Below, in pieces: positions 20,400 to 59,825 of a stretch of DNA of 64,000 nucleotides. Source of the DNA: Bacteroidales bacterium (GTDB taxonomy: Bacteria; Bacteroidota; Bacteroidia; Bacteroidales; F082); contig DAOKYW010000016.1 in the NCBI GenBank assembly GCA_035325985.1, positions 4,126-68,125 of the forward strand, given 5' to 3'. Each line of letters starts with the position of its first letter. Position 1 is the first letter of the stretch. The notes under the pieces are model-generated. The model was not told where the DNA came from, did not search any database, and saw only the letters and a program-made list of their open reading frames with translations. The position numbers and the translations under genes were made by a program.

Positions 20400-20415
20400 T
20401 ACGAATCGTCATTTT

Positions 20416-20454: not shown

Positions 20455-20472
20455 TAAAAAACAAACATGGAG

Positions 20473-21828: not shown

Positions 21829-21850
21829 GACTTTGTGTTTTGGTTGGTTA

Positions 21851-22276
21851 TTAACGCTTTACATCGGGTTTTGGCGGAAATCCGTTCAAATCAACTTCTC
21901 CTGCCCATTTTAGAAACGCAACGAGGTCGTTGGCCTGCTCTTCCGAAAAGCCGTAAGCCACCATTTTGCGACCGCGCGGTGCCCAGGGCACTTTCGACAT
22001 TAATGCAGCCTTGATGTATCCCTCACCCCGGCGTTCGTATACCTTGGTGAGCTCTGGAGCATAATAGGCTCCTTCGCCAAAAATGGTATGACAGCCCATG
22101 CAATTGTTCTTCTCCCATAGGGCTTTGCCACGTACCACTTCAGCGTTAAGAAGATGCGCATTGGTTTGTGCGGGAACCTCGTTGACCAACGAGTTCCACG
22201 ATAATCCCAGGAAAATGGCAAAAGTAACTGCCGTTCCTCCCAGAAAAAAAGTGCGTGCTTGTGATTTCGACAACAT
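21851..22276 (-). CDS. norC: nitric oxide reductase cytochrome c subunit NorC
   Basis: 141 aa. N-terminal membrane anchor and a single CMGCH heme-c motif. The context NCMGCHTIFGEGAYYAPELT is typical of NorC. Confidence 0.88.
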   Translation of the reverse strand: MLSKSQARTFFLGGTAVTFAIFLGLSWNSLVNEVPAQTNAHLLNAEVVRGKALWEKNNCMGCHTIFGEGAYYAPELTKVYERRGEGYIKAALMSKVPWAPRGRKMVAYGFSEEQANDLVAFLKWAGEVDLNGFPPKPDVKR

Positions 22277-23498: not shown

Positions 23499-23507
23499 TT
23501 TCCTCGT

Positions 23508-24191
23508 CTAAAAATAAATTTCCGACATCATTTGTTCAATCGGCACCCCTTTACTTATGAGAATGTCGCGAACTTCTACCACCATTTCGGCACTGCCGCA
23601 TAAATAATAAAGGAGTGTCGGGTCGAAATGCGGCTGTTCCTTTAGCCATCTGGTGAGCCTGCCGGAATACAATCCCGGTCCGCTTTCCTGCGAACAACAG
23701 CGAACATAGCGCTCCCCAAAAGCGCTAAGCATCTCATGATCAAAATAAAATGAATCGGCTGTTCTGCCGCCATGAATAAGCATTTTGTTTTGACCCAGTC
23801 CGGCGCGCATCATAGCGCGATAAGGGGCTATGCCTGTGCCGGCTGCTATCCACCAGGCCGGCTTTTGATCGCCCAAAAAAGCACCAAAGGGCGCCGATAC
23901 ACTCAATGTATCACCGGGTTTAAGGTTTGCAAGTCTGGGCGTAAGCAAGCCATCCGGTTTAATGTTGAAGAGCAATTCAATGTAAGGATCATTAGGGCCG
24001 CTGGCAATGCTGTAGAGCCGGGGCGGCAATCCGTCGAGGCTCAGGCCTACCACCTGACCTGGCAGAAAGCTCTGCCGCCTGGCAAGGCGAATCACATAAA
24101 CGCCTCTGCCAAGTTCGCTTTTACCTTCAAGGGTAACCGTGTCCAATCGCAGATTCTTCAGAAAAGTTGTAAGTCCGTTGTCCATGAGCAT
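23508..24191 (-). CDS. ferredoxin-NADP+ reductase-like FAD/NAD(P)-binding oxidoreductase
   Basis: 227 aa. FAD motif RLYSIAS and NAD(P) motif AAGTGIAP. Ends 9 nt upstream of rlmN. Confidence 0.8.
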   Translation of the reverse strand: MLMDNGLTTFLKNLRLDTVTLEGKSELGRGVYVIRLARRQSFLPGQVVGLSLDGLPPRLYSIASGPNDPYIELLFNIKPDGLLTPRLANLKPGDTLSVSAPFGAFLGDQKPAWWIAAGTGIAPYRAMMRAGLGQNKMLIHGGRTADSFYFDHEMLSAFGERYVRCCSQESGPGLYSGRLTRWLKEQPHFDPTLLYYLCGSAEMVVEVRDILISKGVPIEQMMSEIYF

Positions 24192-24304
24192 GTTTGGTGT
24201 CGCAAAATTAATGTATTGATTGAGCGCCGCCCTTGCAAAAAACTTTGTCTTTTGACGTACAAGTCTTAAATGGTTTACTTTTGTTGTTAATAAATAAACA
24301 ACCG

Positions 24305-24964
24305 ATGGATCCGGTTATCAGGGTTACGGTGGTTGACGACCACGAGATCTTCCGCAGCGGACTTCGCATGGTGATCAACAAGATGGGTTACGCCAAAGTG
24401 GTGGCCGAAGCCGGCGACGGAGAAGAGTTTCTGAAGCTGCTTCCCGAACTTGAAACCGATATCGTGCTTATGGACATTGAGATGCCCGTGCTTAACGGCT
24501 ATGAAGCAACACGTAACGCACTGGAGATCAATCCTGATTTGAAGATTATCGCCCTCACCATGTTTAAAGACGATGCCTACATACAGAGCATGATCGAGGC
24601 CGGAGTCAAAGGTTTTCTTATAAAAAATATCAGGAAGGAAGTGCTCGAGCGCGCGCTTCAGGCCGTTTACAACGGCAAGACCTATTACAGTGAGGAGCTT
24701 TGGGACTACTTCACCCGCAGCATCGTAAAGGAAGAAAAAAAGGAAGAAAAGCCTTCGGCCGAAGGCATGGCTCTTACAAGGCGCGAACTGGATGTGCTGC
24801 AACTGTTGGCTGAGGGCCTGAACAACAAGGAAATAGCCGACCGCTTGTTTGTAAGCGAACGCACCGTAGTAGGACACAAGTCGAACCTGATGTCGAAAAC
24901 CAATACCAAAAACACCGTTGCCCTACTCGCCTACGCACTTCGTAATGGGCTGATTGACATCTGA
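24305..24964 (+). CDS. LuxR/FixJ/NarL-family response regulator
   Basis: REC domain (VTVVDDHEIF, VLMDIEMPVLNG, IIALTMF, GFLIKN) plus a LuxR HTH (LTRRELDVLQLLAEGLNNKEIADRLFVSERTV). Start trimmed from 24233 to ATG 24305. No kinase is directly adjacent. Confidence 0.9.
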   Translation: MDPVIRVTVVDDHEIFRSGLRMVINKMGYAKVVAEAGDGEEFLKLLPELETDIVLMDIEMPVLNGYEATRNALEINPDLKIIALTMFKDDAYIQSMIEAGVKGFLIKNIRKEVLERALQAVYNGKTYYSEELWDYFTRSIVKEEKKEEKPSAEGMALTRRELDVLQLLAEGLNNKEIADRLFVSERTVVGHKSNLMSKTNTKNTVALLAYALRNGLIDI

Positions 24965-24987
24965 TTATCATTTCTAATTACAGTTTA

Positions 24988-25024
24988 TTGCGTTTTTACG
25001 CAATTGCTTTGCGTAAAAACGCAA
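24988..25024 (+). promoter_or_regulatory. nested palindrome: two TTGCG-N6-CGCAA sites 21 bp apart that together form a 16-bp inverted repeat
   Basis: TTGCGTTTTTACGCAA (24988-25003), spacer TTGCT, then TTGCGTAAAAACGCAA (25009-25024). The two arms are exact reverse complements, and each arm is itself a 5+5 palindrome. The element starts 24 nt after the LuxR-RR stop and lies about 80-115 bp upstream of the -7 box at 25102. Confidence 0.5.
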
Positions 25025-25101
25025 TTCCTCTTTCGCCAGTCCGCAATATTTATATTGTGAAAACAGTAACAATGTACCTTTTCCATACCCAAAAGTGGGT
25101 A

Positions 25102-25109
25102 TATTTTTG
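25102..25109 (+). promoter_or_regulatory. candidate -7 box (TATTTTTG) for the hydrogenase operon
   Basis: TAnnTTTG, 48 nt upstream of the ATG at 25157. Confidence 0.4.
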
Positions 25110-25156
25110 TAACGCGATTGTTAGAAAATTCACATTAACACCAAAAAGATACAACA

Positions 25157-25675
25157 ATGAAAAAGGCAAAGATTCTCGTAGTTGACGACGACATGGATGT
25201 GATCAACGTCCTTGAGCCCATGCTCACCCACGAAGGTTATGAAGTGCTAACCGCCTACAACAAGCAGGAAGGCTTGGAAATCGCCCGCCGCGAACGGCCC
25301 GATCTGGCCATCCTCGACGTGATGATGACCACCCAGTACGAGGGTTTCGAGCTGGCAAAGGAATTTGTTGACGATCCTGAGCTAAGGGGCACTGCCACGC
25401 TGATGGAAACCTCCATCGAGGTGCTGATGACCACCAAGCCCAGCGTACAGGCTATGGCGCGCGAATTCCGCAACGACCCTAATTACAAGGAGCTGCAGGT
25501 GATCCTGATCCGCGATATCGTTACAGGAAATGCCGGAATTGACTACCGTGCCGAAGACGGCCGCTCGGTCTGGGTACCTGTTGACGGTTTTATCCGCAAG
25601 CCAGTTGACCGTTCGCGACTGCTCCCTGAAATCGAACGCATCCTGAACAAAAAGGCCGAAGCCGCCAATGCTTAA
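25157..25675 (+). CDS. single-domain response regulator receiver with a ~40-residue insertion
   Basis: 172 aa. Acidic pocket VVDDD, phospho-acceptor context AILDVMM (Asp54), and conserved Lys-Pro FIRKPV at residue 148. That is about 94 residues after the Asp, against about 50 in canonical REC domains. Confidence 0.75.
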   Translation: MKKAKILVVDDDMDVINVLEPMLTHEGYEVLTAYNKQEGLEIARRERPDLAILDVMMTTQYEGFELAKEFVDDPELRGTATLMETSIEVLMTTKPSVQAMAREFRNDPNYKELQVILIRDIVTGNAGIDYRAEDGRSVWVPVDGFIRKPVDRSRLLPEIERILNKKAEAANA

Positions 25676-25716
25676 CAAACGCATATACTATTTGCACATT
25701 CAATGCTAACCAAGCC

Positions 25717-26181
25717 ATGAGCGAAGCAGTTAAAGAAATTTTGAAACAATATCCCGGTGCCGGCCACGACAGCCTCATCCCCATACTCCAGCAGGTTCAG
25801 GACAAGATGGGCTATCTGTCGGAAGAATCGGTGATTGAAGTGGGCAAACACCTCAATATGCCGGCCAGCAAGATCTTTGGGGTAGCCACTTTTTACAACC
25901 AGTTCAGGTTTACCCAGCCCGGCAAATACCATATTCAAGTGTGCCGCGGCACAGCCTGCCACGTATTGGGTTCAGCCACGGTGCTCGACGAGCTCGAGAA
26001 GCTGCTGAAAATCAAATCTGGCCAGACTTCGCGCGATAAAATGTTCAGTTTGGAAGTAGTGGCCTGTATCGGCGCCTGTGGTCTGGCTCCCGTAATCAGT
26101 ATCAACGGCGAGTTTCATGCTAAGGTGACCTCAGAAACGCTGAAAAATATCATTGAAAACTACCGCAACAGGGAGGCATAA
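25717..26181 (+). CDS. hydC: NuoE-like [2Fe-2S] subunit of a NAD(P)H-linked [FeFe]-hydrogenase (HydC/HndA type)
   Basis: 154 aa. Cys motifs CRGTACHVLG and CIGACGLAP of the thioredoxin-like 2Fe-2S fold. Confidence 0.9.
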   Translation: MSEAVKEILKQYPGAGHDSLIPILQQVQDKMGYLSEESVIEVGKHLNMPASKIFGVATFYNQFRFTQPGKYHIQVCRGTACHVLGSATVLDELEKLLKIKSGQTSRDKMFSLEVVACIGACGLAPVISINGEFHAKVTSETLKNIIENYRNREA

Positions 26182-26183
26182 TT

Positions 26184-28124
26184 ATGACCACAGATAAAAG
26201 TTACCTTATTGAGAACGCCCTCAAGGTGAGTGAGCGTTCGAAACTGACTCCCGAAACCGAGCGCAAACTCCGGTATATCAGGCACGAAGAAAATACCAGT
26301 CCGGTAATCTTTGTCGGGGCAGGCACCTGCGGACTTGGCGCCGGAGCAGCCGAAACCATGGCCAAAACCAAAGAATGGCTCGAGGCGCGCAATATCGAGG
26401 CTCAAGTGGTACCCGTAGGCTGCATCGGCCTTTGCTCGAGCGAACCTTTACTGGATGTTAAACTCCCTGGAAAGAAGCGTATCTCGTTCGAAAAAGTAAC
26501 CGGCGACAAAGTTGAAGAGCTTTTAAACCTTGTTTTCGAAGGACAGCTGCCCGAAAATTCCATCCTGGGCCAGTTCTCGGCTCAGGAAAACCAGGAAGAC
26601 TGGAAAGGCATCAACGATATCAATTTGCACCCGTTTTTCAAACCTCAGGTGCGTATCGTACTCGAAAACTGCGGCATCATCGACCCTGTCAGCATCGAAG
26701 AATACATAGCCCGCGGCGGCTACAAAGCCTATCTCAATACCCTTAAGGTGTTCACGCGCAGCGAACTGTGCGACTATGTGGAAAAAAGCGGCTTACGCGG
26801 TCGCGGGGGCGGAGGATTTCCGACAGGCAAAAAATGGAAGTTTGCTTTGGGCACCGAAGCCGACCAGAAATACCTGATTTGCAATGCAGACGAAGGCGAC
26901 CCTGGTGCTTTTATGGATCGCGCCGTAATTGAAGGCGACCCTCACCGTCTGCTCGAGGGCATGATGATAGCGGCTTATGCCATTGGAGCAACCAAAGCCT
27001 ATATCTACATCAGGGCCGAATACCCGCTGGCTATTGAGCGCCTGGTCATTGCCATCGAAAAGGCTAAGGAATATGGCCTGCTGGGCAATGACATCTTCGG
27101 CACCGGAATAAAGCTGGATATTGTCATCAAGAAAGGAGCCGGGGCTTTTGTTTGCGGAGAAGAAACAGCGCTCATCCATAGCATCGAAGGCAAGCGGGGT
27201 ATGCCACGACCCAGGCCGCCATTCCCCGCTGTCAGCGGTTTGTTTGGCAAGCCCACCATCATCAACAACGTTGAAACCCTGGCCAACCTTCCCACCATCA
27301 TCAACAAAGGCGCCGACTGGTTTGCCGCAATGGGCACATCAACCAGCAAAGGCACAAAAGTGTTTGCCCTTTCGGGCAAAATTGCCACAACAGGACTGGT
27401 TGAAATTCCTATGGGCACTTCCATTCGCGATATCATTTATAAAATTGCCGGAGGCGTGGCTAACGGAAAACGCTTTAAGGCAGTGCAGATGGGTGGCCCG
27501 TCGGGTGGTTGCGTAACCGAAACTAACCTCGACATTCCCGTTGACTACGAAAGCCTTATCAATGTGGGCGCCATGATGGGATCCGGTGGCATGGTAATCA
27601 TGGACGAAGACACCTGCATGGTGGATGTAGCCAAGTTTTTCATGGACTTCATTCAGCGCGAGAGCTGCGGCAAGTGCATACCCTGCCGCGAAGGAACCCG
27701 TCGCATGCTCGAAATCATCGACAGCATCACCACCAAGCCCAAAAACCGTGAGATACATGAACCTTTAGCCCGATTCAAAGGTGTAATGCAGCTGGAACAA
27801 CTGGGCAGAGTTATTAAAGACACCTCGCTCTGCGGCTTAGGACAAACAGCACCCAATCCGGTGTTAAGCACATTGCAGTGGTTCCGCGAGGAATACGAAG
27901 AGCATGTATTCGACAAGAAATGCCGTGCCGGTGTATGTCAGAATCTTCGCGAATACAGCATCGATGTGGATAAATGCACCGGTTGCACTATTTGCGCCAA
28001 AAAGTGCCCGACCAATGCCATCATCGGAAGTCGTAAAAACCCTTACTACATCATCCCCGACAAATGCATCAGCTGTGGCGCCTGCATGGAAGCCTGCAAT
28101 TTCGATGCCGTGAGGGCCAGCTAA
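26184..28124 (+). CDS. hydB: NuoF-like flavoprotein subunit of a NAD(P)H-linked [FeFe]-hydrogenase (HydB/HndC type)
   Basis: 646 aa. N-terminal 2Fe-2S thioredoxin-like domain (GTCGLGAG...VGCIGLCSSEP), FMN/NADH site GRGGGGFPTGKKW, SCGKCIPCREG, and a C-terminal pair of CxxCxxCxxxCP motifs. Confidence 0.93.
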   Translation: MTTDKSYLIENALKVSERSKLTPETERKLRYIRHEENTSPVIFVGAGTCGLGAGAAETMAKTKEWLEARNIEAQVVPVGCIGLCSSEPLLDVKLPGKKRISFEKVTGDKVEELLNLVFEGQLPENSILGQFSAQENQEDWKGINDINLHPFFKPQVRIVLENCGIIDPVSIEEYIARGGYKAYLNTLKVFTRSELCDYVEKSGLRGRGGGGFPTGKKWKFALGTEADQKYLICNADEGDPGAFMDRAVIEGDPHRLLEGMMIAAYAIGATKAYIYIRAEYPLAIERLVIAIEKAKEYGLLGNDIFGTGIKLDIVIKKGAGAFVCGEETALIHSIEGKRGMPRPRPPFPAVSGLFGKPTIINNVETLANLPTIINKGADWFAAMGTSTSKGTKVFALSGKIATTGLVEIPMGTSIRDIIYKIAGGVANGKRFKAVQMGGPSGGCVTETNLDIPVDYESLINVGAMMGSGGMVIMDEDTCMVDVAKFFMDFIQRESCGKCIPCREGTRRMLEIIDSITTKPKNREIHEPLARFKGVMQLEQLGRVIKDTSLCGLGQTAPNPVLSTLQWFREEYEEHVFDKKCRAGVCQNLREYSIDVDKCTGCTICAKKCPTNAIIGSRKNPYYIIPDKCISCGACMEACNFDAVRAS

Positions 28125-28158
28125 TCAAGCCATCAATAACTACAAAAGCCAAGCAACG

Positions 28159-29880
28159 ATGAACCTCAGAATAGAAGTCAACAACAATGTGCTCGAAGCC
28201 CAGCAGGGCGATACCATCCTGGATGCCCTGAACCGGCACGGGATGAGCGTCCCGACACTTTGCCATATGAAAGGGCTTGTACCCACCGGTTCGTGCCGTA
28301 TGTGTGTGGTGGAGGTCGAAGGACGACGAAACCTTGTGCCGGCATGCTCCGAACCTATAACCGACGGTATGCGCATCAAAACACACTCCAACCGTGTGGT
28401 GGAATCGCGCAAAACGATCGTAGAGCTGCTGCTCTCGAACCACCCTGACGACTGCCTTTATTGCGAGCGCAATGGCAGCTGCGAACTTCAGAAGCTTTCG
28501 GAAGACCTCAACGTGCGCGAGCGTCGTATCAGCGGCAACAAAAACAATTACAAACTCGATGTTTCGAGCGCCAGCCTGGTGCGCGATCCCGCCAAGTGTA
28601 TCCTTTGCGGCCGCTGTGTGCGGGTGTGCGAAGAGATAGAAGGCGTTTCGGCCATCGATTTTGTGGGCCGTGGCAGCAAAACACTCATTAATACTTCGTT
28701 CAACCATGGCCTGAACCTGAGCACATGCGTCAACTGCGGACAGTGCATCATGGTATGCCCCACCGGAGCCCTGAAGGAAAAACCGCATATCACCGAAATA
28801 AAAGATAATCTGGGCAACCCCAATAAAACTGTTGTGGTGCAGTATGCACCCAGTATCACGGTTTCGTTTGCCGAAGAATTTGGCATGAAGCCCGGCCAGA
28901 ATGTGATCGGGCTGCTGAATGCCGCTCTCAGGCGTATCGGGTTCGACTATGTATTCGACACCTCCTTTTCGGCCGACCTCACCATTATGGAAGAAGCCTC
29001 CGAGCTCGTTCACCGCATCACCAATGGTGGCACCCTGCCAATGATAACCAGCTGTTGCCCGGGCTGGGTGAAATACGCCGAAGAGTTTGGGCACGACATC
29101 CTGCCTAACCTATCTTCCTGCAAATCACCACAGCAGATGATGGGTGCCATTATCAAAAGCTATTTTGCTCAAGTCGAAGGTTTGGCGCCCGAAAACATCT
29201 ATTCTGTATCCATCATGCCATGCACAGCCAAAAAGTTTGAGCAACAACGCGAAGAGATGACCCAAAATGGCATTTCGGATGTTGACGCGGTGCTCACCAC
29301 CCGCGAACTGGTGCGTTTGATACGCCTCTTCGGCATCGACATCAACAAACTCGAACCCGAAATTGCCGACTCGCCTCTGGGCACACGCTCATCGGCAGGA
29401 AAGATTTTCGGCGCATCGGGCGGTGTGATGGAAGCTGCAATCCGCACGGCACATTTCCTGATTACCGGAAAAGAAATGGTGAGGTTTCAGGTGAAAGCTG
29501 TGCGCGGCCTCAAAGGGCGCAAGGAAGCCACCGTCAAAGTGGGCGAGCTTGAAATAGGTGTAGCAGTTGTCAGCGGACTTAAAAATGCCTCTTTGCTTCT
29601 TGACGAAATACGCAACGGACGCTCCGACATTCATTTCATCGAAGTGATGGCCTGCCCGGGCGGATGTATCAATGGTGGCGGACAGCCTATCGGCACCGAT
29701 GAGGAAGCTGTGAAGGCACGCATGGCATCGCTCTACGATATCGACGAGAAGGATGCTATTAAAGTATCGCACAAGAATCCTTATATCGTTGAGCTGTACG
29801 AAAAGTTCCTGGGTAAGCCGCTGGGTCATAAGAGTCATCAGCTGCTCCACACCCATTATCAAAAGCGCGAAGTGAACTAA
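28159..29880 (+). CDS. hydA: [FeFe]-hydrogenase catalytic subunit (multimeric NuoEF-associated type, HydA/HndD)
   Basis: 573 aa. 2Fe-2S domain (CHMKGLVPTGSCRMCVVEV), HPDDCLYCERNGSC, and two ferredoxin-type 4Fe-4S motifs. All three H-cluster signatures are present: TSCCPGW, MPCTAKKFE and EVMACPGGCINGGGQP. Confidence 0.95.
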   Translation: MNLRIEVNNNVLEAQQGDTILDALNRHGMSVPTLCHMKGLVPTGSCRMCVVEVEGRRNLVPACSEPITDGMRIKTHSNRVVESRKTIVELLLSNHPDDCLYCERNGSCELQKLSEDLNVRERRISGNKNNYKLDVSSASLVRDPAKCILCGRCVRVCEEIEGVSAIDFVGRGSKTLINTSFNHGLNLSTCVNCGQCIMVCPTGALKEKPHITEIKDNLGNPNKTVVVQYAPSITVSFAEEFGMKPGQNVIGLLNAALRRIGFDYVFDTSFSADLTIMEEASELVHRITNGGTLPMITSCCPGWVKYAEEFGHDILPNLSSCKSPQQMMGAIIKSYFAQVEGLAPENIYSVSIMPCTAKKFEQQREEMTQNGISDVDAVLTTRELVRLIRLFGIDINKLEPEIADSPLGTRSSAGKIFGASGGVMEAAIRTAHFLITGKEMVRFQVKAVRGLKGRKEATVKVGELEIGVAVVSGLKNASLLLDEIRNGRSDIHFIEVMACPGGCINGGGQPIGTDEEAVKARMASLYDIDEKDAIKVSHKNPYIVELYEKFLGKPLGHKSHQLLHTHYQKREVN

Positions 29881-29907
29881 TTATACCGAGCCTTAAAACG
29901 GACACTC

Positions 29908-31893
29908 ATGCCACACAACAGCGAGATCAGGCAGCTTGTATTCACGGTGAAAGACCTGTGCAGGATGTGCTTTACCTGTGTGCGGGAGTGTCCGGTGAAG
30001 GCCATACGGATAGCCAACGGTCAGGCCGAAGTAATCAGTGAACGCTGCATAGGTTGTGGCAATTGCGTGAGGGTGTGCCGGCAGGGAGCCAAGAACTTTG
30101 TGCGCCATACCCATCAGGTGCTCGATATGCTGGACAGCGGAAAACGATTGGTAGCCATGGTAGCACCCAGCTTTCCGGCCGAATTTACCGAGCTTGACCA
30201 TCCAGGGCGTTTAGTTGGGATGCTCCGTGCCCTTGGCTTCGAAAAGGTAACCGAAGTGGCCTTCGGCGCCGACCTTGTAGCCCGCAGCTATCGCTCCCTG
30301 TTTCTTGACAACAACCACGGTGCAGTAATTTCATCCGATTGTCCTGCCATTGTCTATTACGTCGAGCACTATCATCCTGAGCTCACGCCGCATCTGGCTC
30401 CGGTCGTTTCGCCCATGGTGGCTGCTGCCCGCAACCTGCTGCGTAAATATGGCGATGATATTACCGTTGTTTTCTTTGGCCCTTGCATCGCCAAGAAAGC
30501 CGAATCGGACGAGGTGCGCTATGCGTTGACTTTTACTGAGTTGCGCGAAATGCTGGCCATCAAGGGTATCGGATACGAAGATTGCGAAATCGCCGGTTTC
30601 GACCCGCCTTTGGCAGGAAAAGGTTCGGTATTTCCCATTAGCCACGGTCTGTTGCAAAACATGGACGTTGCTGCCGACCTCACCCGGGGCGATGTCGTGG
30701 TGGCCGAAGGCAGGGTGAACATCAAAGATGCTATCAACGAATTTGCCCACGGCGTGCTGAACGCCCGGCACCTCGAACTGCTGTGCTGCGAAGGCTGCAT
30801 TATGGGACCCGGCATGAGCCCAAAAGGCAATAAATACGAGCGGCGAAGTCAGGTTTCGGCCTATGTGTCCGCAAAACTCGAAAATTTCGACCGGCAGGCC
30901 TGGGAAGCCGAGTTGGAAGAAGCCAAAAGCCTTGATCTCAGCACCAGTTTCGAAGCCCGCGATCGTAGGTTGCAACGGCCCGACAATGAAGCCATAAACG
31001 CTGTGCTGCAAAAATTCGGCAAGACAAAGCCATCCGATTTGCTCGATTGCGGAGCATGCGGCTACGACAGCTGTATCGAACATGCGGTTGCCGTACTTCA
31101 GGGCCTTGCCGAAGACGAAATGTGCCTGCCTTATACCATCGAAAAGCTACACCAAAGCATAGAGCACCTCAACCTTTCGAACGCCGAACTGGCCAGTGCA
31201 CGCGAAGCCCTCAGGCAATCCGAAAAACTGGCACATATGGGCCAGCTTTCGGCAGGCATTGCCCATGAACTGAATAATCCTCTTGGCGTGATCACGATGT
31301 ACAGCAACCTGCTGCTCGACGATGCCCCTGATGATCAGATGCGTAACGATCTGCAGCTCATTGTGGAACAAGCCGAAAGATGCCGTAAAATTGTGGGCGG
31401 ACTGCTCAATTTCGCACGCAAAAACCAGCTCAGGCTCGTGGAAACCAACGTTGAGTCGCTGGTAAACCGAAGCCTGCAATCGGTAGTGATTCCGCCTGCT
31501 GTTGCAGTGGAAGTGGAAGTCGATCTGACCGACCCCTTTGCATTTATTGATGCCGATCAGATGATGCAGGTACTCACCAATCTGGAAAAGAATGCTGTGG
31601 AAGCCATGCCCGAAGGCGGAATACTGCGAGTCAGGATAGGCGAAAAAAACGAAGAAATAACCATTAGTATTGCTGATACGGGCACCGGTATTTCGCCCGA
31701 AAATATGGATCGGATATTTACTCCTTTCTTTACCACCAAGGAGGTGGGCAAAGGCACCGGGCTTGGGTTGCCGTTGTGCTATGGCATTGTGAAGATGCAC
31801 AAAGGTCAGATCAATGTAACCTCTAACGACCAGCCCGAAAAAGGCCCGACCGGAACAACATTCACTATTGTTTTACCCAGAAAACCCATTTAG
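29908..31893 (+). CDS. [FeFe]-hydrogenase-like (putative sensory) protein fused to a histidine kinase
   Basis: 661 aa. Domain order: 2x CxxCxxCxxxCP ferredoxin domain; H-domain with variant signatures SSDCPAI, GPCIAKKAE and LLCCEGCIMGPG; four-Cys module CGACGYDSC...C; coiled coil; H-box GIAHELNNPLG; N box NLEKNAVEAM; G boxes DTGTGI and GKGTGLGLP. Confidence 0.85.
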   Translation: MPHNSEIRQLVFTVKDLCRMCFTCVRECPVKAIRIANGQAEVISERCIGCGNCVRVCRQGAKNFVRHTHQVLDMLDSGKRLVAMVAPSFPAEFTELDHPGRLVGMLRALGFEKVTEVAFGADLVARSYRSLFLDNNHGAVISSDCPAIVYYVEHYHPELTPHLAPVVSPMVAAARNLLRKYGDDITVVFFGPCIAKKAESDEVRYALTFTELREMLAIKGIGYEDCEIAGFDPPLAGKGSVFPISHGLLQNMDVAADLTRGDVVVAEGRVNIKDAINEFAHGVLNARHLELLCCEGCIMGPGMSPKGNKYERRSQVSAYVSAKLENFDRQAWEAELEEAKSLDLSTSFEARDRRLQRPDNEAINAVLQKFGKTKPSDLLDCGACGYDSCIEHAVAVLQGLAEDEMCLPYTIEKLHQSIEHLNLSNAELASAREALRQSEKLAHMGQLSAGIAHELNNPLGVITMYSNLLLDDAPDDQMRNDLQLIVEQAERCRKIVGGLLNFARKNQLRLVETNVESLVNRSLQSVVIPPAVAVEVEVDLTDPFAFIDADQMMQVLTNLEKNAVEAMPEGGILRVRIGEKNEEITISIADTGTGISPENMDRIFTPFFTTKEVGKGTGLGLPLCYGIVKMHKGQINVTSNDQPEKGPTGTTFTIVLPRKPI

Positions 31894-31920
31894 TAACAAG
31901 GATTCAATACATACAAGATT

Positions 31921-32316
31921 ATGAGCAACGAAAACAAACTGATTCTGATTGCCGACGATGATGCCGACTACCTTTATCAAATGGAAATGATGGTGCGCAG
32001 CTTTGGTTTCAGGGTAAAGACCGCTGAAGGACAGGCAGAAGCAGAAAAAATACTGGAATCCACGAAGCCTGATCTTGCCATTTTCGACCTGATGATGGAA
32101 CAGGAGGACAGCGGATTCATCCTCGCTTACAAAGCACGGCGCAAATACCCCGAAATGCCCATCATTATTGCATCGGCAGCAACCGCCGAAACAGGCTTCA
32201 ATTTTGACCTTTACGACGAGGGCAATAAAAACTGGATCAAGGCCGACCTTTATCTTGAAAAAGGCATACGTCCCGACCAGCTGCACCGCGAAATCAATAA
32301 GCTGCTAAAACTCTGA
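31921..32316 (+). CDS. single-domain (CheY-like) response regulator
   Basis: 131 aa. LIADDDAD and AIFDLMME phospho-acceptor context. No output domain. Confidence 0.88.
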   Translation: MSNENKLILIADDDADYLYQMEMMVRSFGFRVKTAEGQAEAEKILESTKPDLAIFDLMMEQEDSGFILAYKARRKYPEMPIIIASAATAETGFNFDLYDEGNKNWIKADLYLEKGIRPDQLHREINKLLKL

Positions 32317-32385
32317 GTTCATTTTATGCGGATAGTGCATTGACTTAACTTTGCCCCGCCAACCGAAAAGAAATAACCGACGAAT

Positions 32386-33507
32386 ATGGCAACGCTACAA
32401 GTGATGGTGGTTGACGATGAACCGGGAATCCGCTCGGGTGTGGTCCGCATTTTGCAGAACTTCACCGTGGGTTATCCATTCATGGATGAGGACTTCGACT
32501 TTGAGGTGATTGAAGCCGGCACGGGCGAGGAAGCCATTGAATTGCTTAATTCCAGAAAAGTGGATGTAGTGCTGCTCGACAATAAGCTACCGGGCATGGA
32601 TGGCATTGAGGTGCTCGAATACATCAACAAACAGCAGTTCGACCTGGCGGTGATGATGATTACTTCCTACGCCTCGCTCGACCTGGCCATAAGAGCCACC
32701 AAGAGCGGCGCGTATAATTTTATGCCCAAGCCTTTTACTCCGCAGGAACTCAGGGCTACTATAGAAAACGTGGCCAAGCACCTTTTCCTGAAACGCATGA
32801 CCCGCAAAATGCAGATTGAGGGCAAGCAAGTCAGGTTTCAGTTCCTGTCGGTGCTGTCGCACGAGCTCAAATCGCCGCTCAATGCTGTGGAAGGCTACCT
32901 CAAAATGATGCAGGAAAAACAACTGGGCGAAAATATCGACAGCTATGCCACTATGATTGACCGTTCGCTGGCCCGCCTGAAGGGCATGCGCAACCTCATC
33001 ATGGACCTGCTCGACCTTACGCGCATCGAATCGGGAAAGAAGGAGCGCCGTTTGCGCGAAACCGATCTGCCCGCAATTGCCCGGCAGGCCATGGATACCA
33101 TGGAGCCCTATGCCATTCAGAAAAACGTGAAAATGACCTTGTCCAGCAAAGGCAATACAACCCTGCTCGCCGATGCCGATGAAATGGAAATCATTTTCAA
33201 TAACCTGGTTTCCAATGCCGTAAAATACAATAAGGATAACGGCAAAGTGAGCGTACTCATCGAAGAAGCAGGAAAAGAAATTGTTATCCGGGTAAGCGAC
33301 ACAGGCATTGGCATGAGCAAGGAAGATATTGAAAAAATCTTCGAAGACTTTGTGCGGATTAAAAACCAGAAAACCAAAGAGATAACCGGAAGCGGACTGG
33401 GTCTTTCCATCCTTAAGCGTATGGTGGAACTCTATAATGGCACCGTGTCCGTGGAAAGTGTTCCCGACGTAGGCACCACCTTTACAGTAACCATTCCAAA
33501 GCAGTAA
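32386..33507 (+). CDS. receiver-fused histidine kinase (N-terminal REC, then HisKA and HATPase_c)
   Basis: 373 aa. REC (VMVVDDEPG, VLLDNKLPGMDG, PKPF), then H-box LSHELKSPLN and G boxes DTGIGM and GSGLGLS. No TM or other sensor domain. Confidence 0.9.
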   Translation: MATLQVMVVDDEPGIRSGVVRILQNFTVGYPFMDEDFDFEVIEAGTGEEAIELLNSRKVDVVLLDNKLPGMDGIEVLEYINKQQFDLAVMMITSYASLDLAIRATKSGAYNFMPKPFTPQELRATIENVAKHLFLKRMTRKMQIEGKQVRFQFLSVLSHELKSPLNAVEGYLKMMQEKQLGENIDSYATMIDRSLARLKGMRNLIMDLLDLTRIESGKKERRLRETDLPAIARQAMDTMEPYAIQKNVKMTLSSKGNTTLLADADEMEIIFNNLVSNAVKYNKDNGKVSVLIEEAGKEIVIRVSDTGIGMSKEDIEKIFEDFVRIKNQKTKEITGSGLGLSILKRMVELYNGTVSVESVPDVGTTFTVTIPKQ

Positions 33508-33606
33508 ACCGCAAGCATGCAATGACGGAACTTTGACCGCGTTATTAAAATTAAAGAGAAAATATTTAAGTATTAAAGAACCTGATTCCATTATAGAAGC
33601 GCCCAC

Positions 33607-35034
33607 ATGAAATTTTATCCCGAGACATACCGCATTCCCGACGAATCGATGAAGCCCTTTATTGATGATGGAGAGATATGGGATTACCTGAATCAGGCCG
33701 AGGCTACGCCCGAAAACGTCAGGCAAGTTATTGAGAAATCATTTTCGAAGCAGCGCCTTAGCCTGATGGACACTGCCATTTTGCTTCGTGCCGATGATCC
33801 TGACATGATCGAGCAAATCAAGCAGGGCGCCCGCAGTCTGAAAGAGAAGGTATATGGCAAGCGCATTGTGCTTTTTGCACCGCTTTACGTGGGCAACTAC
33901 TGCTCCAACAACTGCCGTTATTGTGGCTTCAAGGCATCAAACAAGGATGCCGTTCGCAAAACACTTACCCGTGAGGAGCTTATCGAAAATGTAAAAGCCC
34001 TGGAAGAACACGGGCAAAAAAGGCTCATTCTTGTTTTTGGCGAACACCGCACCTATTCGCCCGAATTTATTGCCGAAACCGTTCGGGAGGTGTACAAAGT
34101 AAAAAAAGACCATGGCGAAATCAGAAGGGTCAACATCAATGCTGCTCCTTTTGACGTGGAGGGTTTCAGAACAATAGGCCAGTCAGGCATCGGCACCTAT
34201 CAGATTTTTCAGGAAACATATCACCACGAAACCTACGCCAATTGCCATACCTCGGGCAAAAAGTCAGATTACGACTGGCGCCTCACTGCCCTCGACAGAG
34301 CCATGGAAGCCGGCATTGACGATGTAGGCATAGGCGCCCTTTTCGGGTTGTACGACTGGCGGTTCGAGGTGATGGCCCTGGTCCGGCACGTGAATCACCT
34401 CGAAGCATGCTATAATGTTGGCCCGCACACCATCTCATTTCCGCGTATTCAGGACGCACTCGAATACGACCTTGACGATCGCTTTACCGTTTCGGACGAA
34501 GATTTTACGCGCCTTGTGGCCATACTGCGGCTGGCCGTGCCTTATACAGGACTCATTCTTACCGCACGTGAACCCGAGCATATAAGGCGCGAAGTACTGG
34601 CTTTCGGTTGCTCGCAAATTGACGCAGGCACCAAGCTGGAGATAGGCGCTTATGCCGAAAACCCCTCGGTAGATCAAAACCTCACAAAAGAGCAGTTTAA
34701 AATCAATGACGACCGCAGCCTGAACGAAGTCATCGACGAGCTGCTCGAAGCCGATTACATCCCCTCATTCTGTACAGCGTGCTATCGCAAGGGCCGCACA
34801 GGCCAACACTTCATGGAATTCAGCGTTCCGGGATTTATCAAGCACTTCTGCACCCCAAATGCCCTGCTTACACTGGCAGAATATATCGAGGACTATGCCA
34901 CTGATGCTACTGCCGAAAAGGGCTGGCGTGTCATTGAGCGCAGCATTGCCGCGCTGGACGACCCTCGCTACGAAGCACAGGTGCGCGAACGTATCGGACG
35001 CATCCGGCAGGGCGAACGCGACCTTTACTTCTGA
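33607..35034 (+). CDS. hydG: [FeFe]-hydrogenase H-cluster radical SAM maturase HydG
   Basis: 475 aa. Radical SAM CSNNCRYC plus a C-terminal CTAC-X22-C auxiliary cluster motif. Confidence 0.93.
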   Translation: MKFYPETYRIPDESMKPFIDDGEIWDYLNQAEATPENVRQVIEKSFSKQRLSLMDTAILLRADDPDMIEQIKQGARSLKEKVYGKRIVLFAPLYVGNYCSNNCRYCGFKASNKDAVRKTLTREELIENVKALEEHGQKRLILVFGEHRTYSPEFIAETVREVYKVKKDHGEIRRVNINAAPFDVEGFRTIGQSGIGTYQIFQETYHHETYANCHTSGKKSDYDWRLTALDRAMEAGIDDVGIGALFGLYDWRFEVMALVRHVNHLEACYNVGPHTISFPRIQDALEYDLDDRFTVSDEDFTRLVAILRLAVPYTGLILTAREPEHIRREVLAFGCSQIDAGTKLEIGAYAENPSVDQNLTKEQFKINDDRSLNEVIDELLEADYIPSFCTACYRKGRTGQHFMEFSVPGFIKHFCTPNALLTLAEYIEDYATDATAEKGWRVIERSIAALDDPRYEAQVRERIGRIRQGERDLYF

Positions 35035-35073
35035 TTTCTTACTCACGCGAAAAGACTCATTGCACTTCAAGCC

Positions 35074-36282
35074 ATGGTAAAAGGAAAAGACCTCAAACCT
35101 CATATCGGGATATTCGGACGACGCAACAACGGCAAGAGTTCCATTATCAATCTGATGGTCAATCAGGAAGTAGCCATTGTATCGCCCGAACCGGGAACAA
35201 CCACCGACCCGGTGAAGAAATCGATCGAAATTTTCGGCATCGGACCGGCCATCATCATCGATACCGCAGGCATTGATGATACCGGCGAACTGGGTGAAAA
35301 GCGTGTGCAAAAAAGCCTTCAGGCCATAAAAACCATCGACTGCGCCATACTTGTCATCACCGAAAACCAGTTCGGGTTTTACGAAAAAGAGCTCATCAAA
35401 CAGTTCCGTGAACATCAGGTGCCCTATCTAATCCTGCACAACAAATCCGACCTGCAGCCTCTGGAAGAAATTACCCGCGAAAAAATCCGTGAGTTTAGCA
35501 AGGCTGAGGTAATTGACTTTACCACCACTAACCAACTCGGACTGGAAGCATTCATAACCGCATTGAAAAAAACTATTCCGGAAACAGTTTATCAGAAACC
35601 GTCTTTATTGGGTGGGTTGGTAGAGCCCGGCGGTGTTGTGGTGCTGGTTACGCCCATCGATTCCGAAGCCCCCGACGGACGCATGATATTGCCGCAGGTG
35701 ATGGCCATACGCGATGTGCTGGATAACGACTGTATTTGCGTAGTGCTCAAGGAAACGCAGCTTGAACAGTATTTCCGCGAGGGAATGCCCGGGCCTCAGC
35801 TGGTTGTTACCGATAGTCAGGCCTTTGGTTTTGTAAGCAAGGTGGTTCCTGCCGAAATACCGCTAACCAGTTTCAGCATCGTTTTTGCCCGGCTGCGGGG
35901 CGATTTTGAGCACTACCTGAAGGGAACAGCCATGCTATCAGCGCTTGACGACGAAGACAAAGTGCTCATCCTCGAATCGTGCACCCATCAGGTGAGTTGC
36001 GAAGACATCGGCCGGCACAAGTTGCCCCGCTGGATTAAAGAGTTTACCGGAAAGAATGTGCATTGCGATATTGTTGCAGGCCTGGCTCAGGTAGCTGATG
36101 TGCACCAATACAAGCTCGTGATACAGTGCGGAGGTTGTGTTGTTACCCGCAAACAGCTCATCAACCGGCTACGACCTGCCGTGAATGCCGGCGTAGCCGT
36201 GAGCAATTATGGCATGGCCATTGCATGGATGAACGGCATTTTCGGCAGGGTGACACAACCCTTTCACAAACTCTATTCATAA
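35074..36282 (+). CDS. hydF: [FeFe]-hydrogenase H-cluster maturation GTPase HydF
   Basis: 402 aa. P-loop GRRNNGKSS, DTAG, and NKSD. The C-terminal cluster motif is CTH-X45-QCGGC, with Gln where many HydF proteins have His. Confidence 0.92.
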   Translation: MVKGKDLKPHIGIFGRRNNGKSSIINLMVNQEVAIVSPEPGTTTDPVKKSIEIFGIGPAIIIDTAGIDDTGELGEKRVQKSLQAIKTIDCAILVITENQFGFYEKELIKQFREHQVPYLILHNKSDLQPLEEITREKIREFSKAEVIDFTTTNQLGLEAFITALKKTIPETVYQKPSLLGGLVEPGGVVVLVTPIDSEAPDGRMILPQVMAIRDVLDNDCICVVLKETQLEQYFREGMPGPQLVVTDSQAFGFVSKVVPAEIPLTSFSIVFARLRGDFEHYLKGTAMLSALDDEDKVLILESCTHQVSCEDIGRHKLPRWIKEFTGKNVHCDIVAGLAQVADVHQYKLVIQCGGCVVTRKQLINRLRPAVNAGVAVSNYGMAIAWMNGIFGRVTQPFHKLYS

Positions 36283-36509
36283 AATATTCCTTTGAGCCGG
36301 GCAACACGCAAAGCCTCAGTGCCGGAAAACAAGAAGTGCCTGCAAATAAAAAGCCTGATCTTATTATAGATGCGTGGCTCAGTGCAAAAGCCTGACCAAT
36401 ATTAGTGTTTCCATGGGCGGGGAAATCTATTCTCCTCATGCCGGAAACACTATGCACCTTGTGCACAGGAAAAATCCATAAACAACAAAACAGGGAATTA
36501 AACAATAAA

Positions 36510-36527
36510 CCCCGCCAAAAGGCGGGG
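36510..36527. terminator. GC-rich hairpin between the convergent hydF and carboxyltransferase genes
   Basis: CCCCGCC-AAAA-GGCGGGG. On the minus strand it is followed by TTTATTGTTT, and on the plus strand by CTTTCTCC. Confidence 0.65.
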
Positions 36528-36563
36528 CTTTCTCCATTGGGTATATTGAATATTGGTTAGGAT

Positions 36564-38102
36564 TTAAAGAGGGATATTGCCGTGTTTCTTCGAAGGGTTG
36601 TTCTTCACCTTATTTTGCGTCATCTCCAGCGCTTCGATGAGCTTGCGTCGGGTTTGTCGAGGATAGATAATCTCGTCGATATAGCCCAAAGCTGCGGCCT
36701 TGTATGGGCTGGCAAAACGCCGGCGGTAATCTTCGATGGCTGCCTTACGCTCTTCCTCCGAGTTCAGCTTGTTCTTGTAGATGATATTGACAGCCCCTTC
36801 AGGTCCCATAACGGCAATCTCGGCAGTGGGATAAGCCAGATTGACATCGGCCCCGATATGCTTGCTCGACATTACATCATAGGCACCACCATAGGCTTTG
36901 CGGGTAATCACCGTGATTTTGGGCACAGTAGCTTCAGCAAAGGCATAGAGTAGCTTGGCGCCATGCTTAATGATACCACCAAATTCCTGAACTGTTCCGG
37001 GAAGGAAACCGGGCACATCTTCAAAAGTAATCAGCGGGATATTGAAGGCATCGCAAAAGCGCACAAAACGGGCAGCCTTGACTGAGCTGTCGATATCCAG
37101 CACTCCAGCAAGCACCGAAGGCTGATTGGCTACAACACCTACAGACCGGCCACCCAGTCGGGCAAATCCGACGATGATGTTTTTGGCATAGTAGGGTTGA
37201 ATCTCGAAGAAATTGTTGTCGTCCACCACCCTGCCTATGATTTCGTGCATATCGTAAGGCTTATTGGGATCGTCGGGTACAATATTGTCGAGGCTTTCGT
37301 CTTCGCGCAGGGGATTGTCGGTACAGGCTTTCACCGGCGGGTCCTCCATATTGTTGGAGGGCAGATAGCTCAGCAGCTCGCGCAACATCATCATAGCCTG
37401 GGTATCATCGTCAGCCATCAGGTGAGCTACACCACTCTTGCTGTTGTGGGTCATGGCGCCCCCCAGTTCTTCCTTGGTAACCTCCTCGTGGGTCACCGCC
37501 TTAATCACATCAGGGCCGGTAACGAACATATAAGAGGTTTCTTTGACCATCATGATAAAGTCGGTGATGGCCGGGGAATAAACCGCTCCGCCTGCACACG
37601 GACCAAGGATGGCACTTATTTGAGGAATCACACCCGACGACATTACATTGCGGTAAAAAATGTCGGCATAGCCGGCCAGACTTTCCACGCCTTCCTGTAT
37701 GCGGGCACCACCGCTATCGTTGAGGCCTATGACCGGCGCCCCCATCTTCATGGCAAGGTCCATTATCTTCACAATCTTATCGGCATTGGCCCGGCTGAGC
37801 GAGCCTCCAAACACCGTAAAGTCCTGAGCGAACACATAGACCAGCCTGCCGTCGATCTTTCCGTAACCGGTTACAACGCCATCGCCCAGAAACTTTTGTT
37901 TGTCCATTTCGAAATCGGTGGCGCGGTGGGTCATAAACTTATCCACTTCCACAAAAGTGTTGGGGTCGAGCAGGTCGAGCAAACGTTCGCGGGCTGTCTT
38001 ACGCCCTGCTTCGTGCTGCTTCCTGATGCGGTCTTCGCCCCCGCCCAGCTCGGCAAGGCGGTTGTATTCCTCAAGTTGTCTGATTTTTTCTTCCTGTGCC
38101 AT
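36564..38102 (-). CDS. acyl-CoA carboxylase carboxyltransferase (beta) subunit, propionyl-CoA/methylmalonyl-CoA type
   Basis: 512 aa, carboxyl_trans family throughout ([17 protein letters not shown]). Confidence 0.92.
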
Positions 38103-38117
38103 ATTGTTGTTTATTAT

Positions 38118-38624
38118 TTATTCCAGTATAACCATGGGCTGATCACCGCTCACCGTATCGCCCTCTTTGACCAGAATACGTTTGATGACGCGATCCTGTT
38201 TCACTTTATATTCGCTATCCATCTTCATGGCCGAAACCACTACTACTGTCTGACCGGCCGACACCGCATCGCCTTCCTTGAAAAGCACTTTTACCACTTT
38301 TCCGGGCATGGGCGAAACAATGACACTTCCGTCGTCGGCATCATCGCGACGTCGGTTGAGCTTATATTTGGTCTCAGCATCAATGATATCGACCTCGAAG
38401 GACGAAAAGAAGGTATTCACGATGTACGACTTGCTTCCGCGGTTTTCGACAAGCTCAACATTGAATGAGCTGTTTTCGTGCAGCACGCTGTACACGCCTT
38501 GCTCCACCTCAATAATGTCAAGCTCGTAAATCTTGTTGTCGATGGCTATCTGATAGTAATTGCCATCGCGGCTCAGGACTTCGATGTTCCTGACTTTATC
38601 CTCAATTTTAATCTCGTATGCCAT
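38118..38624 (-). CDS. biotin carboxyl carrier protein (biotin/lipoyl attachment domain)
   Basis: C-terminal biotinyl domain with SAMKMD. Start trimmed from 38825 to ATG 38624 (MAYEIKIED), 13 nt after the upstream stop. Confidence 0.85.
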   Translation of the reverse strand: MAYEIKIEDKVRNIEVLSRDGNYYQIAIDNKIYELDIIEVEQGVYSVLHENSSFNVELVENRGSKSYIVNTFFSSFEVDIIDAETKYKLNRRRDDADDGSVIVSPMPGKVVKVLFKEGDAVSAGQTVVVVSAMKMDSEYKVKQDRVIKRILVKEGDTVSGDQPMVILE

Positions 38625-38637
38625 ATTTCGATAGTTA

Positions 38638-59799: not shown

Positions 59800-59825
59800 T
59801 TTGTGAAATAATTAACAGTTTGTGG

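Follow-up and report, generated by a model that had tools for sequence, protein, structure and literature searches.

In a 64,000-nucleotide (nt) stretch of a Bacteroidales contig, referred to here as the window, ten open reading frames (ORFs), numbered as genes 1-10 along the + strand (24305-36282), bring together an [FeFe]-hydrogenase, two of its maturases, and a set of two-component signalling proteins that includes a hydrogenase-like protein fused to a histidine kinase. Gene identities were taken from Pfam and NCBIfam profile scans, the latter at NCBIfam curated cut-offs. An original prediction, made from the DNA letters by themselves, had proposed this ten-gene order with its domains and gaps, and ORF calls and both profile libraries agree with it, the successive gaps being 192, 41, 2, 34, 27, 27, 69, 99 and 39 nt; Pfam likewise recovers the two kinases and four receiver (REC) domains that had been counted in the locus. 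Judged jointly with the model set out below, it is probable that the locus is a conserved Bacteroidota hyd operon encoding a HydABC-type enzyme, two maturases and a three-gene signalling module. The ten genes are as follows.

24305-24964, + strand: gene 1, NarL/LuxR-type response regulator (RR) (Pfam Response_reg and GerE helix-turn-helix; D11, D12, D57)
25157-25675, + strand: gene 2, stand-alone receiver with an insertion of ~45 residues (Response_reg, profile positions 1-84 of 111 only)
25717-26181, + strand: gene 3, HydC, NuoE-like [2Fe-2S] subunit (PF01257, 2Fe-2S_thioredx, 4.9e-50; NCBIfam NuoE family matches)
26184-28124, + strand: gene 4, HydB, NuoF-like flavin mononucleotide/NADH subunit (Complex1_51K, NADH_4Fe-4S and two Fer4)
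28159-29880, + strand: gene 5, HydA, catalytic [FeFe]-hydrogenase (Fer2_4, NADH-G_4Fe-4S_3, Fer4, Fe_hyd_lg_C and Fe_hyd_SSU)
29908-31893, + strand: gene 6, HydS-like [FeFe]-hydrogenase-histidine kinase (HydS-HK; two Fer4, Fe_hyd_lg_C, FeS (PF04060), HisKA and HATPase_c)
31921-32316, + strand: gene 7, stand-alone receiver of 131 amino acids (aa) (Response_reg only; D12-14, D56, S85, K114)
32386-33507, + strand: gene 8, REC-HisKA-HATPase kinase (Response_reg, HisKA and HATPase_c; D10, D11, D65, T93, K115)
33607-35034, + strand: gene 9, HydG maturase (Radical_SAM and BATS; TIGR03955, 505 bits against a cut-off of 312)
35074-36282, + strand: gene 10, HydF maturase GTPase (TIGR03918, 477 bits against a cut-off of 326; HydF_dimer and HydF_tetramer in Pfam)

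Relatives were collected in a scan of one genome per species, in which at least 583 loci were related to the gene 6 fusion; the best 80 of these, all from Bacteroidota metagenome-assembled genomes (MAGs) and 57-70% identical to gene 6, were analysed. The gene order that the original prediction had suggested looking for in other Bacteroidota genomes is found there. HydC-HydB-HydA-(HydS-kinase)-REC-(REC-kinase) is strictly colinear in 63 of the 80 loci and four more hold all six genes, with 12 cut by contig ends and one skipped. In every locus with enough downstream flank (74/74), the sensor-kinase is followed by the REC and then by the REC-kinase, so the linkage is functional and chance is excluded as its cause. 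Median intergenic gaps across the loci are 20-64 nt. Gene 2 lies directly upstream of HydC in 46 of the 80, and HydG and HydF lie downstream in 43, where a HydE-like radical-SAM gene is usually next; no HydE gene was found in the whole 64-kb window, despite the HydG and HydF genes in the operon. The three-gene signalling core is a fixed companion of the hydrogenase, while the accessory regulators vary.

A sister clade has neither gene 2 nor the maturases. A rex gene immediately follows the REC-kinase in 22 of its loci, and upstream of HydC stand a divergent PAS-type HydS and a PP2C/SpoIIE phosphatase (upstream PAS-type HydS in L019, L030, L038, L039, L044-L046, L051-L054, L063, L064, L067-L070 and L076), so that two distinct systems, each a putative H2 sensor, flank the hydrogenase operon of this clade. 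Most of these PAS-type HydS proteins lack the cysteine equivalent to CpI Cys499 (FYDD-GC), and the group-A-like HydA of one such locus (L067) reads SGDCP, Asp replacing the proton-relay Cys.

The enzyme is, from its predicted subunits, a HydABC-type, NuoE/NuoF-linked, bifurcating-type [FeFe]-hydrogenase. The gene set of the HydABC bifurcating type (HydDB A3) is complete, with an adjacent NuoE-like subunit, a NuoF-like subunit with extra clusters, and an M3-type HydA. HydA had been said to carry complete H-cluster motifs, and all three are intact (TSCCPGW, MPCTAKKFE and EVMACPGGCINGGGQP); the protein passes NF040763 ('NADH-dependent [FeFe] hydrogenase, group A6') with 831 bits against a cut-off of 765, and its best solved relative is the electron-bifurcating HydA1 chain 8a6t_A (3e-180, near-full-length). 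HydB, which has an N-terminal extension and a 2x[4Fe-4S] domain at its C-terminus, aligns nearly full-length with the solved bifurcating HydB-type chains 7q4v_B, 8a6t_B, 7p5h_B and 7t2r_B. Some HydABC homologues are NADH-only (PMC8924675).

A putative sensory hydrogenase-kinase and its candidate partners

Gene 6 encodes, as judged by its sequence, a soluble [FeFe]-hydrogenase of the putative sensory (group C-like) kind, joined to a full class-I histidine kinase. Its N-terminus carries two [4Fe-4S] motifs (Fer4, Fer4_10 at residues 14-61), followed by an H-domain (Fe_hyd_lg_C, 8e-44) in which all H-cluster cysteines are kept: C145 (SSD144C145P), C193 (GPC), C293/C294 and C297 (LLCCEGC), each of them kept in all, or in no fewer than 90%, of 41-80 orthologues. 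A further motif, C381-x2-C384-x4-C389-x16-C406, is invariant among orthologues and coincides with PF04060 at residues 379-408; Cx2Cx4Cx16C is described as characteristic of groups C and D, the putative sensory ones (PMC8163306). Pfam matched no PAS domain in gene 6. From just past Cys406, an AlphaFold2 model runs as a single continuous helix (residues 411-472) through the phospho-accepting His453, and the class I kinase core is complete (AH453ELNNPL, NLEKNAVEAM, DTGTGI, FTPFFTTK, GTGLGL). The SDCP motif, the H-box and the N/G1/F/G2 boxes are at least 90% conserved over 80 orthologues, and mostly invariant. A protein of a Bacteroidales MAG matches the gene 6 product at 100% identity. The protein database contains more than 7,500 relatives, and a protein library clustered at 50% identity contains ~45 full-length colinear representatives at 36-51% identity; a single-protein metagenome scan with gene 6 returned nothing beyond generic kinase-domain matches.

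In an alignment with HydA and with PAS-type HydS of related loci, gene 6 shares with PAS-type HydS a 4-residue deletion that removes the E279/E282 region, as well as the replacements S319 to Ala, M353 to Gly (GPC) and M497 to Leu, together with the motif GC[IL]MGPG. It is 37% identical to PAS-type HydS over 528 aa (E 2e-104), as against 29% to the HydA of the operon; by the proxy of these identities and the shared indels, it would fall in group C and not group A. The canonical proton pathway is lost except for an Asp (D144) at the position of the CpI-Cys299 proton relay, which is invariant in 80 orthologues.

Only two sensory enzymes of this kind have been studied biochemically, the PAS-type TmHydS and the domain-less TamHydS (PMC8163306, PMC10055695, PMC13104023). 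Like TmHydS (Thermotoga maritima, group C, M2f) and TamHydS (Thermoanaerobacter mathranii, group D, M2e), gene 6 combines an N-terminal 2x[4Fe-4S] region, an H-domain and a C-terminal Cx2Cx4Cx16C motif (PMC8163306, PMC10055695), has lost the Cys299/E279/E282/S319 path and the Met353/Met497 pair, and is located next to the genes of a trimeric group A enzyme. A PAS domain forms the C-terminus of TmHydS, and TamHydS is devoid of an output domain, whereas the cluster domain of gene 6 runs directly into a kinase with dimerisation/histidine-phosphotransfer (DHp) and catalytic/ATP-binding (CA) domains; position 299 is Ala in TmHydS and Asp in gene 6. With a kinase core in place of PAS, gene 6 is a variant architecture, the kinase-linked subtype of HydDB, and not M2f proper.

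That subtype is defined in HydDB as '[FeFe] group C1, histidine kinase-linked (putative)' (PMC5037454). The Bacteroidales isolate Petrimonas mucosa carries a C1 gene near a hydrogenase of the Hnd/HydABC type (PMC7768429), and in Hydrogenedentota 21 of 53 C1 genes adjoin A3 genes (PMC11406978). The architecture, less novel than the original prediction had assumed, belongs to a class that is already catalogued and whose adjacency to bifurcating-type hydrogenases has been reported (PMC5037454, PMC7768429, PMC11406978). Gene 6 resembles HydDB C1 in being an H-domain protein tied to a histidine kinase, beside a HydABC/Hnd-type hydrogenase, and a putative H2 sensor; unlike the Hydrogenedentota C1 proteins, reported to be without recognisable H-cluster motifs, it keeps all ligands. 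Its assignment to C1 and not C3 follows the description of these groups and is uncertain, because some proteins called C3 also carry histidine-kinase domains (PMC11406978). No biochemical characterisation of any kinase-fused HydS was found in the literature searched, in line with the earlier remark that the signalling output of such fusions lacks biochemical demonstration.

The phospho-site residues of gene 2 are conserved (D10, D11, D54, S86, K148), and an AlphaFold2 model with a predicted local distance difference test score (pLDDT) of 87.6 shows a receiver fold into which a beta meander of three strands is inserted at ~115-142, between alpha4 and beta5. The insertion noted originally in this receiver is real, being conserved in orthologues and confidently modelled; a Foldseek search with the model returned ordinary receivers only, and nothing analogous to the insertion turned up among solved structures. 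Genes 2 and 7 are paralogous, each nearest to the other within the window (26% identity, 1e-12). The sole input domain of gene 8 is an NtrC-like N-terminal receiver, which precedes an H-box (SH159ELKSPL) and matching N/G1/F/G2 boxes. The acidic pair, the acceptor Asp and the Lys are present in all four receivers, with Asp and Lys invariant or nearly so in orthologues. Both operon kinases are of the HisKA type according to Pfam, as had been claimed. The kinase core of gene 6 is nearest to ZraS/AtoS/NtrB/KinB/FixL-type kinases and that of gene 8 to HK853/VicK/PhoR, the gene 8 receiver (REC8) is nearest to NtrC1/LuxO/Spo0F, and the receivers of genes 2 and 7 (REC2 and REC7) are nearest to RR468/YycF/PleD/DivK-like receivers. 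From these resemblances we infer a phosphotransfer order that may run from the HydS-kinase to REC8/kinase 8 and on to REC7 and REC2.

Two more hybrid kinases are encoded in the window, a HisKA-HATPase-REC protein (40292-42220, + strand) and a PAS-HisKA-HATPase-REC protein (61639-63153, + strand), and their receivers are closer to the receiver of gene 1 (REC1) and REC8 than to REC2 and REC7.

Promoter elements of the operon and of gene 1

The following elements lie in the non-coding DNA around the ten genes.

24276-24283, + strand: Bacteroidetes-type -7 box of gene 1, TACTTTTG, conserved upstream of gene 1 in relatives
24284-24301, no strand assigned: Rex-like box TTGTTAATAAATAAACAA, directly after the gene 1 -7 box, 13/14 match
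24988-25024, no strand assigned: two tandem 16-base-pair (bp) palindromes, TTGCGTTTTTACGCAA and TTGCGTAAAAACGCAA, together a 17-bp hairpin (free energy -24 kcal/mol)
25055-25072, no strand assigned: Rex-like operator 1, TTGTGAAAACAGTAACAA, 13/14 match, ~30 nt upstream of the -7 box (25072 to 25102)
25102-25109, + strand: hyd operon -7 box TATTTTTG, conserved island TAnTTTTG
25118-25135, no strand assigned: Rex-like operator 2, TTGTTAGAAAATTCACAT, just past the -7 box, 12/14 match
36507-36530, - strand: G+C-rich hairpin, probable terminator at the operon end (10-bp stem with seven G-C pairs), between the convergent hydF and carboxyltransferase genes

An alignment of the 192 nt that precede gene 2 with the corresponding DNA of 15 relatives (16 promoters) shows four conserved islands: TTGCGTAAAAKTACNGG; ATTGTGAAAnnAGTAACAA; the -7 box TAnTTTTG; and ATTGTTAAnnnnATnACA. 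The islands ATTGTGAAAnnAGTAACAA and ATTGTTAAnnnnATnACA match the Rex operator consensus TTGTGAANNNNTTCACAA at 13/14 and 12/14 positions, and Rex is known to control hydrogenase and HydG genes elsewhere (PMC6391272). In 15 close relatives, operator 1 always lies at -108 relative to the ATG of gene 2, and operator 2, at -45, is conserved in 15 relatives. Counted at a threshold of at least 12/14 positions of TTGTKAAnnnnTTMACAA, Rex-like boxes occur over all loci at 4.46 per kb in hyd-upstream non-coding DNA, 0.23 in other non-coding DNA and 0.026 in coding DNA, a ~20-fold enrichment over other non-coding DNA. Sister-clade loci with rex in the operon have tandem Rex-like boxes at a similar distance. 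Because the Rex-like operators are conserved and rex lies inside the sister-clade operon, transcription is probably set mainly by NADH/NAD+, and the hyd operon is probably governed by a Rex-type NADH/NAD+ repressor. The regulatory scheme first proposed for the operon had included neither the two Rex-like operators that flank the -7 box nor the sister-clade rex, and is to be extended by both. A further Rex-like box (13/14) at 59801-59818, flanked by cysS and a divergent gene for an NAD-dependent epimerase, may have arisen by chance.

The same design is seen at gene 1, where the layout of a -7 box followed by a Rex-like box is kept in six relatives (L003, L006, L008, L009, L011 and L015), so that gene 1 and the hyd operon have a common promoter design. 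An alternative start for gene 1 is TTG 24233; ATG 24305 agrees with the box at 24276 and with an orthologue length of 211-218 aa. The best NCBIfam matches of gene 1 are MctR, GacA, NarP and NarL, all under their cut-offs.

The motif TAnnTTTG has three matches only on the + strand between 24000 and 36600, all of them intergenic. This Bacteroidetes -7 motif was more informative than sigma-70 promoter and terminator scans, which performed at or below chance. A sigma-54 promoter for the conserved upstream element was rejected by eye, as the GG-N10-GC spacing is absent, and a candidate internal promoter before gene 8 (TAACTTTG, 32346-32353, in the 69-nt gap) is unconserved (12/75 loci). No + strand terminator comparable to that at the operon end was found between genes 2 and 10, and Rfam returned no known RNA element in 23500-37000.

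The two palindromes at 24988-25024 share the 6-N4-6 form TTGCGx-N4-xCGCAA, which we take to resemble the ComA box of a NarL-family regulator. The second is the local form of the conserved island TTGCGTAAAAKTACNGG. TTGCGT-N4-ACGCAA was considered as a conserved palindromic operator and discarded: exact and one-mismatch searches matched the window and L006 only, and the half-element TTGCGTAAAAKTAC alone is conserved.

Downstream, the genes that converge on the end of the hyd operon (36564-40176, - strand) encode a carboxyltransferase, a biotin carrier and a biotin carboxylase, and the set constitutes a biotin-dependent carboxylase or decarboxylase. On the other side, a nitric-oxide-reductase-like cluster (19617-22276, - strand; NorQ/CbbQ-type AAA ATPase, COX1-family NorB-like subunit and cytochrome c) lies a few kb from the hyd operon, in a host that is presumably a strict anaerobe.

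A model for hydrogen signalling and its alternatives

The model that we favour as a whole, and hold to be the likelier account by a modest degree, combines an H2-sensing HydS-HK network with transcription set by Rex. H2, or the redox poise set by H2, would change the state of the H-cluster, and this change would pass through the C-terminal cluster domain and the continuous helix into the DHp helix (His453), shifting the balance between kinase and phosphatase activity. The phosphoryl group would then reach the NtrC-like receiver of the REC-kinase, which would act on the receivers encoded by genes 7 and 2, both of which appear to carry an altered alpha4-beta5 output face. The final target would be something other than a DNA-binding domain encoded in the conserved core. 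Initiation at the operon promoter would be set mainly by a Rex-type NADH/NAD+ repressor, and the neighbouring LuxR-type regulator would belong to a separate HisKA_3 two-component system that shares the Rex-like control and may add input. A multi-step His-Asp relay is the natural reading of a sensor-kinase that is universally linked to a REC and a REC-kinase.

Several points weigh against this model. H2 as the ligand of gene 6, and the direction of the response, are themselves deduced. The linker through which the signal would travel (residues 404-453) has a pLDDT below 50 in the monomer model, which is expected for a dimeric coiled coil. H2 does not reduce the C-terminal [4Fe-4S] cluster of TamHydS, an enzyme of group D (PMC13104023), so the cluster-to-helix signal cannot be a simple redox change of that cluster. 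Family resemblance alone sets the suggested order of phosphotransfer; a mirror-tree analysis gave partial correlations of 0.51 between the DHp domain of gene 6 and REC8 and 0.48 between it and REC7, with weak values for the DHp domain of gene 8 and both receivers, and was dropped as a means of assigning kinase-receiver pairs since it does not discriminate between partners. No rex gene is present in the 64-kb window, and a CRP/FNR-family protein could be the binder because the Rex consensus contains a TGTGA-N6-TCACA core. In one sub-clade, only 27-40 nt separate an upstream LuxR system (HisKA_3 kinase, RR, short REC) from gene 2, and the two may be co-transcribed, so a functional tie between the operon and the LuxR-type RR is possible.

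This last point bears on the original prediction, in which the H2 signal runs through the HydS-HK, the REC and the REC-kinase to the LuxR-type RR, which binds 24988-25024 and provides feedback on hyd. We regard this account as unlikely, although parts of it are well founded. A LuxR-type RR is co-oriented upstream of the operon in ~29 of the 46 gene-2 loci and lies downstream in two more, it is nearly contiguous with the operon in the sub-clade just described, the second palindrome overlaps a conserved promoter element at an activator-like position, and gene 1 and the operon share their promoter layout. The frequent adjacency and shared design suggest that the roles of regulator and operon are physiologically related. 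In no fewer than 16 relatives, however, a co-oriented HisKA_3 kinase (with Cache and/or PAS) directly precedes the RR, and a short NarL-type receiver is often next after it, so that the RR and its HisKA_3 kinase are, from their domains, an ordinary self-contained NarL-type system in these relatives. No HisKA_3 kinase is encoded in the 64-kb window, though gene 1 is present, and the kinases of the operon beside it are of the HisKA type and do not match the RR. No LuxR-type RR was found within 4.5-10 kb in the close relatives L002, L004, L005, L007, L010 and L014, where the same promoter is kept, and none occurs in any sister-clade locus; the identity of the neighbouring RRs (35-79%) suggests that not all are orthologues. 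With a HisKA_3 kinase of its own in some relatives and no copy near the operon in others, the RR is an unlikely cognate partner for the operon kinases. Of the earlier claim, then, the multi-step His-Asp relay is supported by tight, universal linkage, and the LuxR-type RR is improbable as its output. The same division applies to 24988-25024: the overlap with the conserved TTGCGTAAAAKTACNGG element is upheld, and a role as the LuxR site is put in doubt by the persistence of that element in genomes without a LuxR gene nearby.

An output that is not transcriptional is also conceivable, if doubtful. Phosphorylated REC7 and REC2 would bind HydABC or Rex, and H2 would thereby adjust either enzyme activity or the NADH set-point at which Rex acts. 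No DNA-binding domain is encoded in the universally conserved core, gene 2 heads the enzyme operon and carries a conserved, confidently modelled insertion, REC2 and REC7 are paralogues with non-canonical output faces, and Rex is the sole DNA-binding protein encoded in the sister-clade operon. This is an argument from absence, however, and distal DNA-binding regulators are common in two-component networks. A fuller form of the idea, to which we give little credence at present, is an H2-driven His-Asp network without a transcription-factor output. Its receivers, with their restructured alpha4-beta5 face (a 3-strand insertion in one of them), would dock on HydABC or Rex, so that H2 partial pressure would directly gate electron-bifurcating H2 production or shift the NADH threshold of Rex; the invariant Asp would mean that the sensor turns over slowly and does not simply bind H2.

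It is less probable again that gene 6 reads redox through its accessory clusters, from reduced ferredoxin or another donor, or that it is a low-rate hydrogenase whose kinase is coupled to turnover. In prototypical enzymes, Asp is the only substitution of Cys299 reported to preserve activity, and catalogued sensory enzymes most often have Ala (~43%), Cys (17%), Pro (~10%) or Ser (~10%) at this site, Asp not being among the common residues (PMC10055695); the Asp of gene 6 is invariant in 80 orthologues. The two N-terminal [4Fe-4S] motifs offer an electron entry route, and TamHydS and TmHydS retain measurable catalysis (PMC8163306, PMC10055695). Against this, the rest of the proton pathway is gone, the Met353/Met497 pair is replaced as in sensory enzymes, and an H-cluster would be costly to keep as a mere redox centre. 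That the signalling genes are simply neighbours of the hydrogenase genes and control unrelated targets is very improbable, given that the six-gene order is kept at 57-70% sensor-kinase identity while flanking genes differ, and that the gaps between the genes are short.

Relation to known systems and significance

The nearest functional analogues of the favoured H2-sensing network are the non-homologous [NiFe] regulatory hydrogenases of group 2b, HoxBC-HoxJ-HoxA of Cupriavidus and HupUV-HupT-HupR of Rhodobacter. In these HoxJ/HupT systems, the sensor is a subunit distinct from the kinase, and a known NtrC-type DNA-binding regulator serves as the output. The hyd module differs in that sensor and kinase are fused, a second kinase tier is present, the core has no DNA-binding output and the metal site is unrelated. 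Its layout is similar to those of Myxococcus RedCDEF and Caulobacter DivJ/PleC-DivK, which pair two kinases with single-domain receivers, one kinase being receiver-gated and the receivers serving as connectors or sinks in place of transcription factors; there is no homology beyond shared domains, and inputs and outputs differ. What the hyd module would have in common with the [NiFe] systems is the logic by which H2 is signalled from a hydrogenase of low activity to a histidine kinase, and through it to the expression of hydrogenase genes (PMC5037454).

Ruminococcus albus-type hydS-hydABC clusters contain a PP2C phosphatase, a Ser/Thr kinase and Rex (cited in PMC8924675). Both systems place a sensory hydrogenase in a HydABC operon with Rex, and the sister clade has just such a pair of HydS-PAS and PP2C alongside the kinase fusion; the HydS-kinase module would use His-Asp chemistry, unlike the Ser/Thr phosphorylation of the Ruminococcus albus type. 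The promoter resembles those of Rex regulons in fermentative anaerobes, in which paired operators lie over the hydrogenase or maturase promoter (PMC6391272), and the sister-clade rex lies inside the operon it would regulate. In contrast to those regulons, Rex is a putative binder in Bacteroidota, no rex accompanies the operon in the window, and the core of the operator also fits CRP/FNR sites.

The class to which this locus belongs is already catalogued, so the locus adds a member and not a new kind of system. What the present analysis adds to that class is the fixed three-gene core, a proton-relay position occupied by an invariant Asp, a promoter architecture with Rex-like boxes, and evidence that the LuxR-type regulator has a kinase of its own. 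The fusion of sensor and kinase provides an easy read-out, autophosphorylation with and without H2, for the signal output of putative sensory [FeFe]-hydrogenases, and because it comes with defined and conserved candidate acceptors, the signalling question is directly testable. This handle is general to the whole class, as hundreds of relatives offer the same as this locus. Since the clade is widely distributed among anaerobic Bacteroidota of digesters, sediments and groundwater, it could explain how major fermenters adjust their H2 output to the H2 partial pressure, a matter of importance for syntrophy and methane formation.

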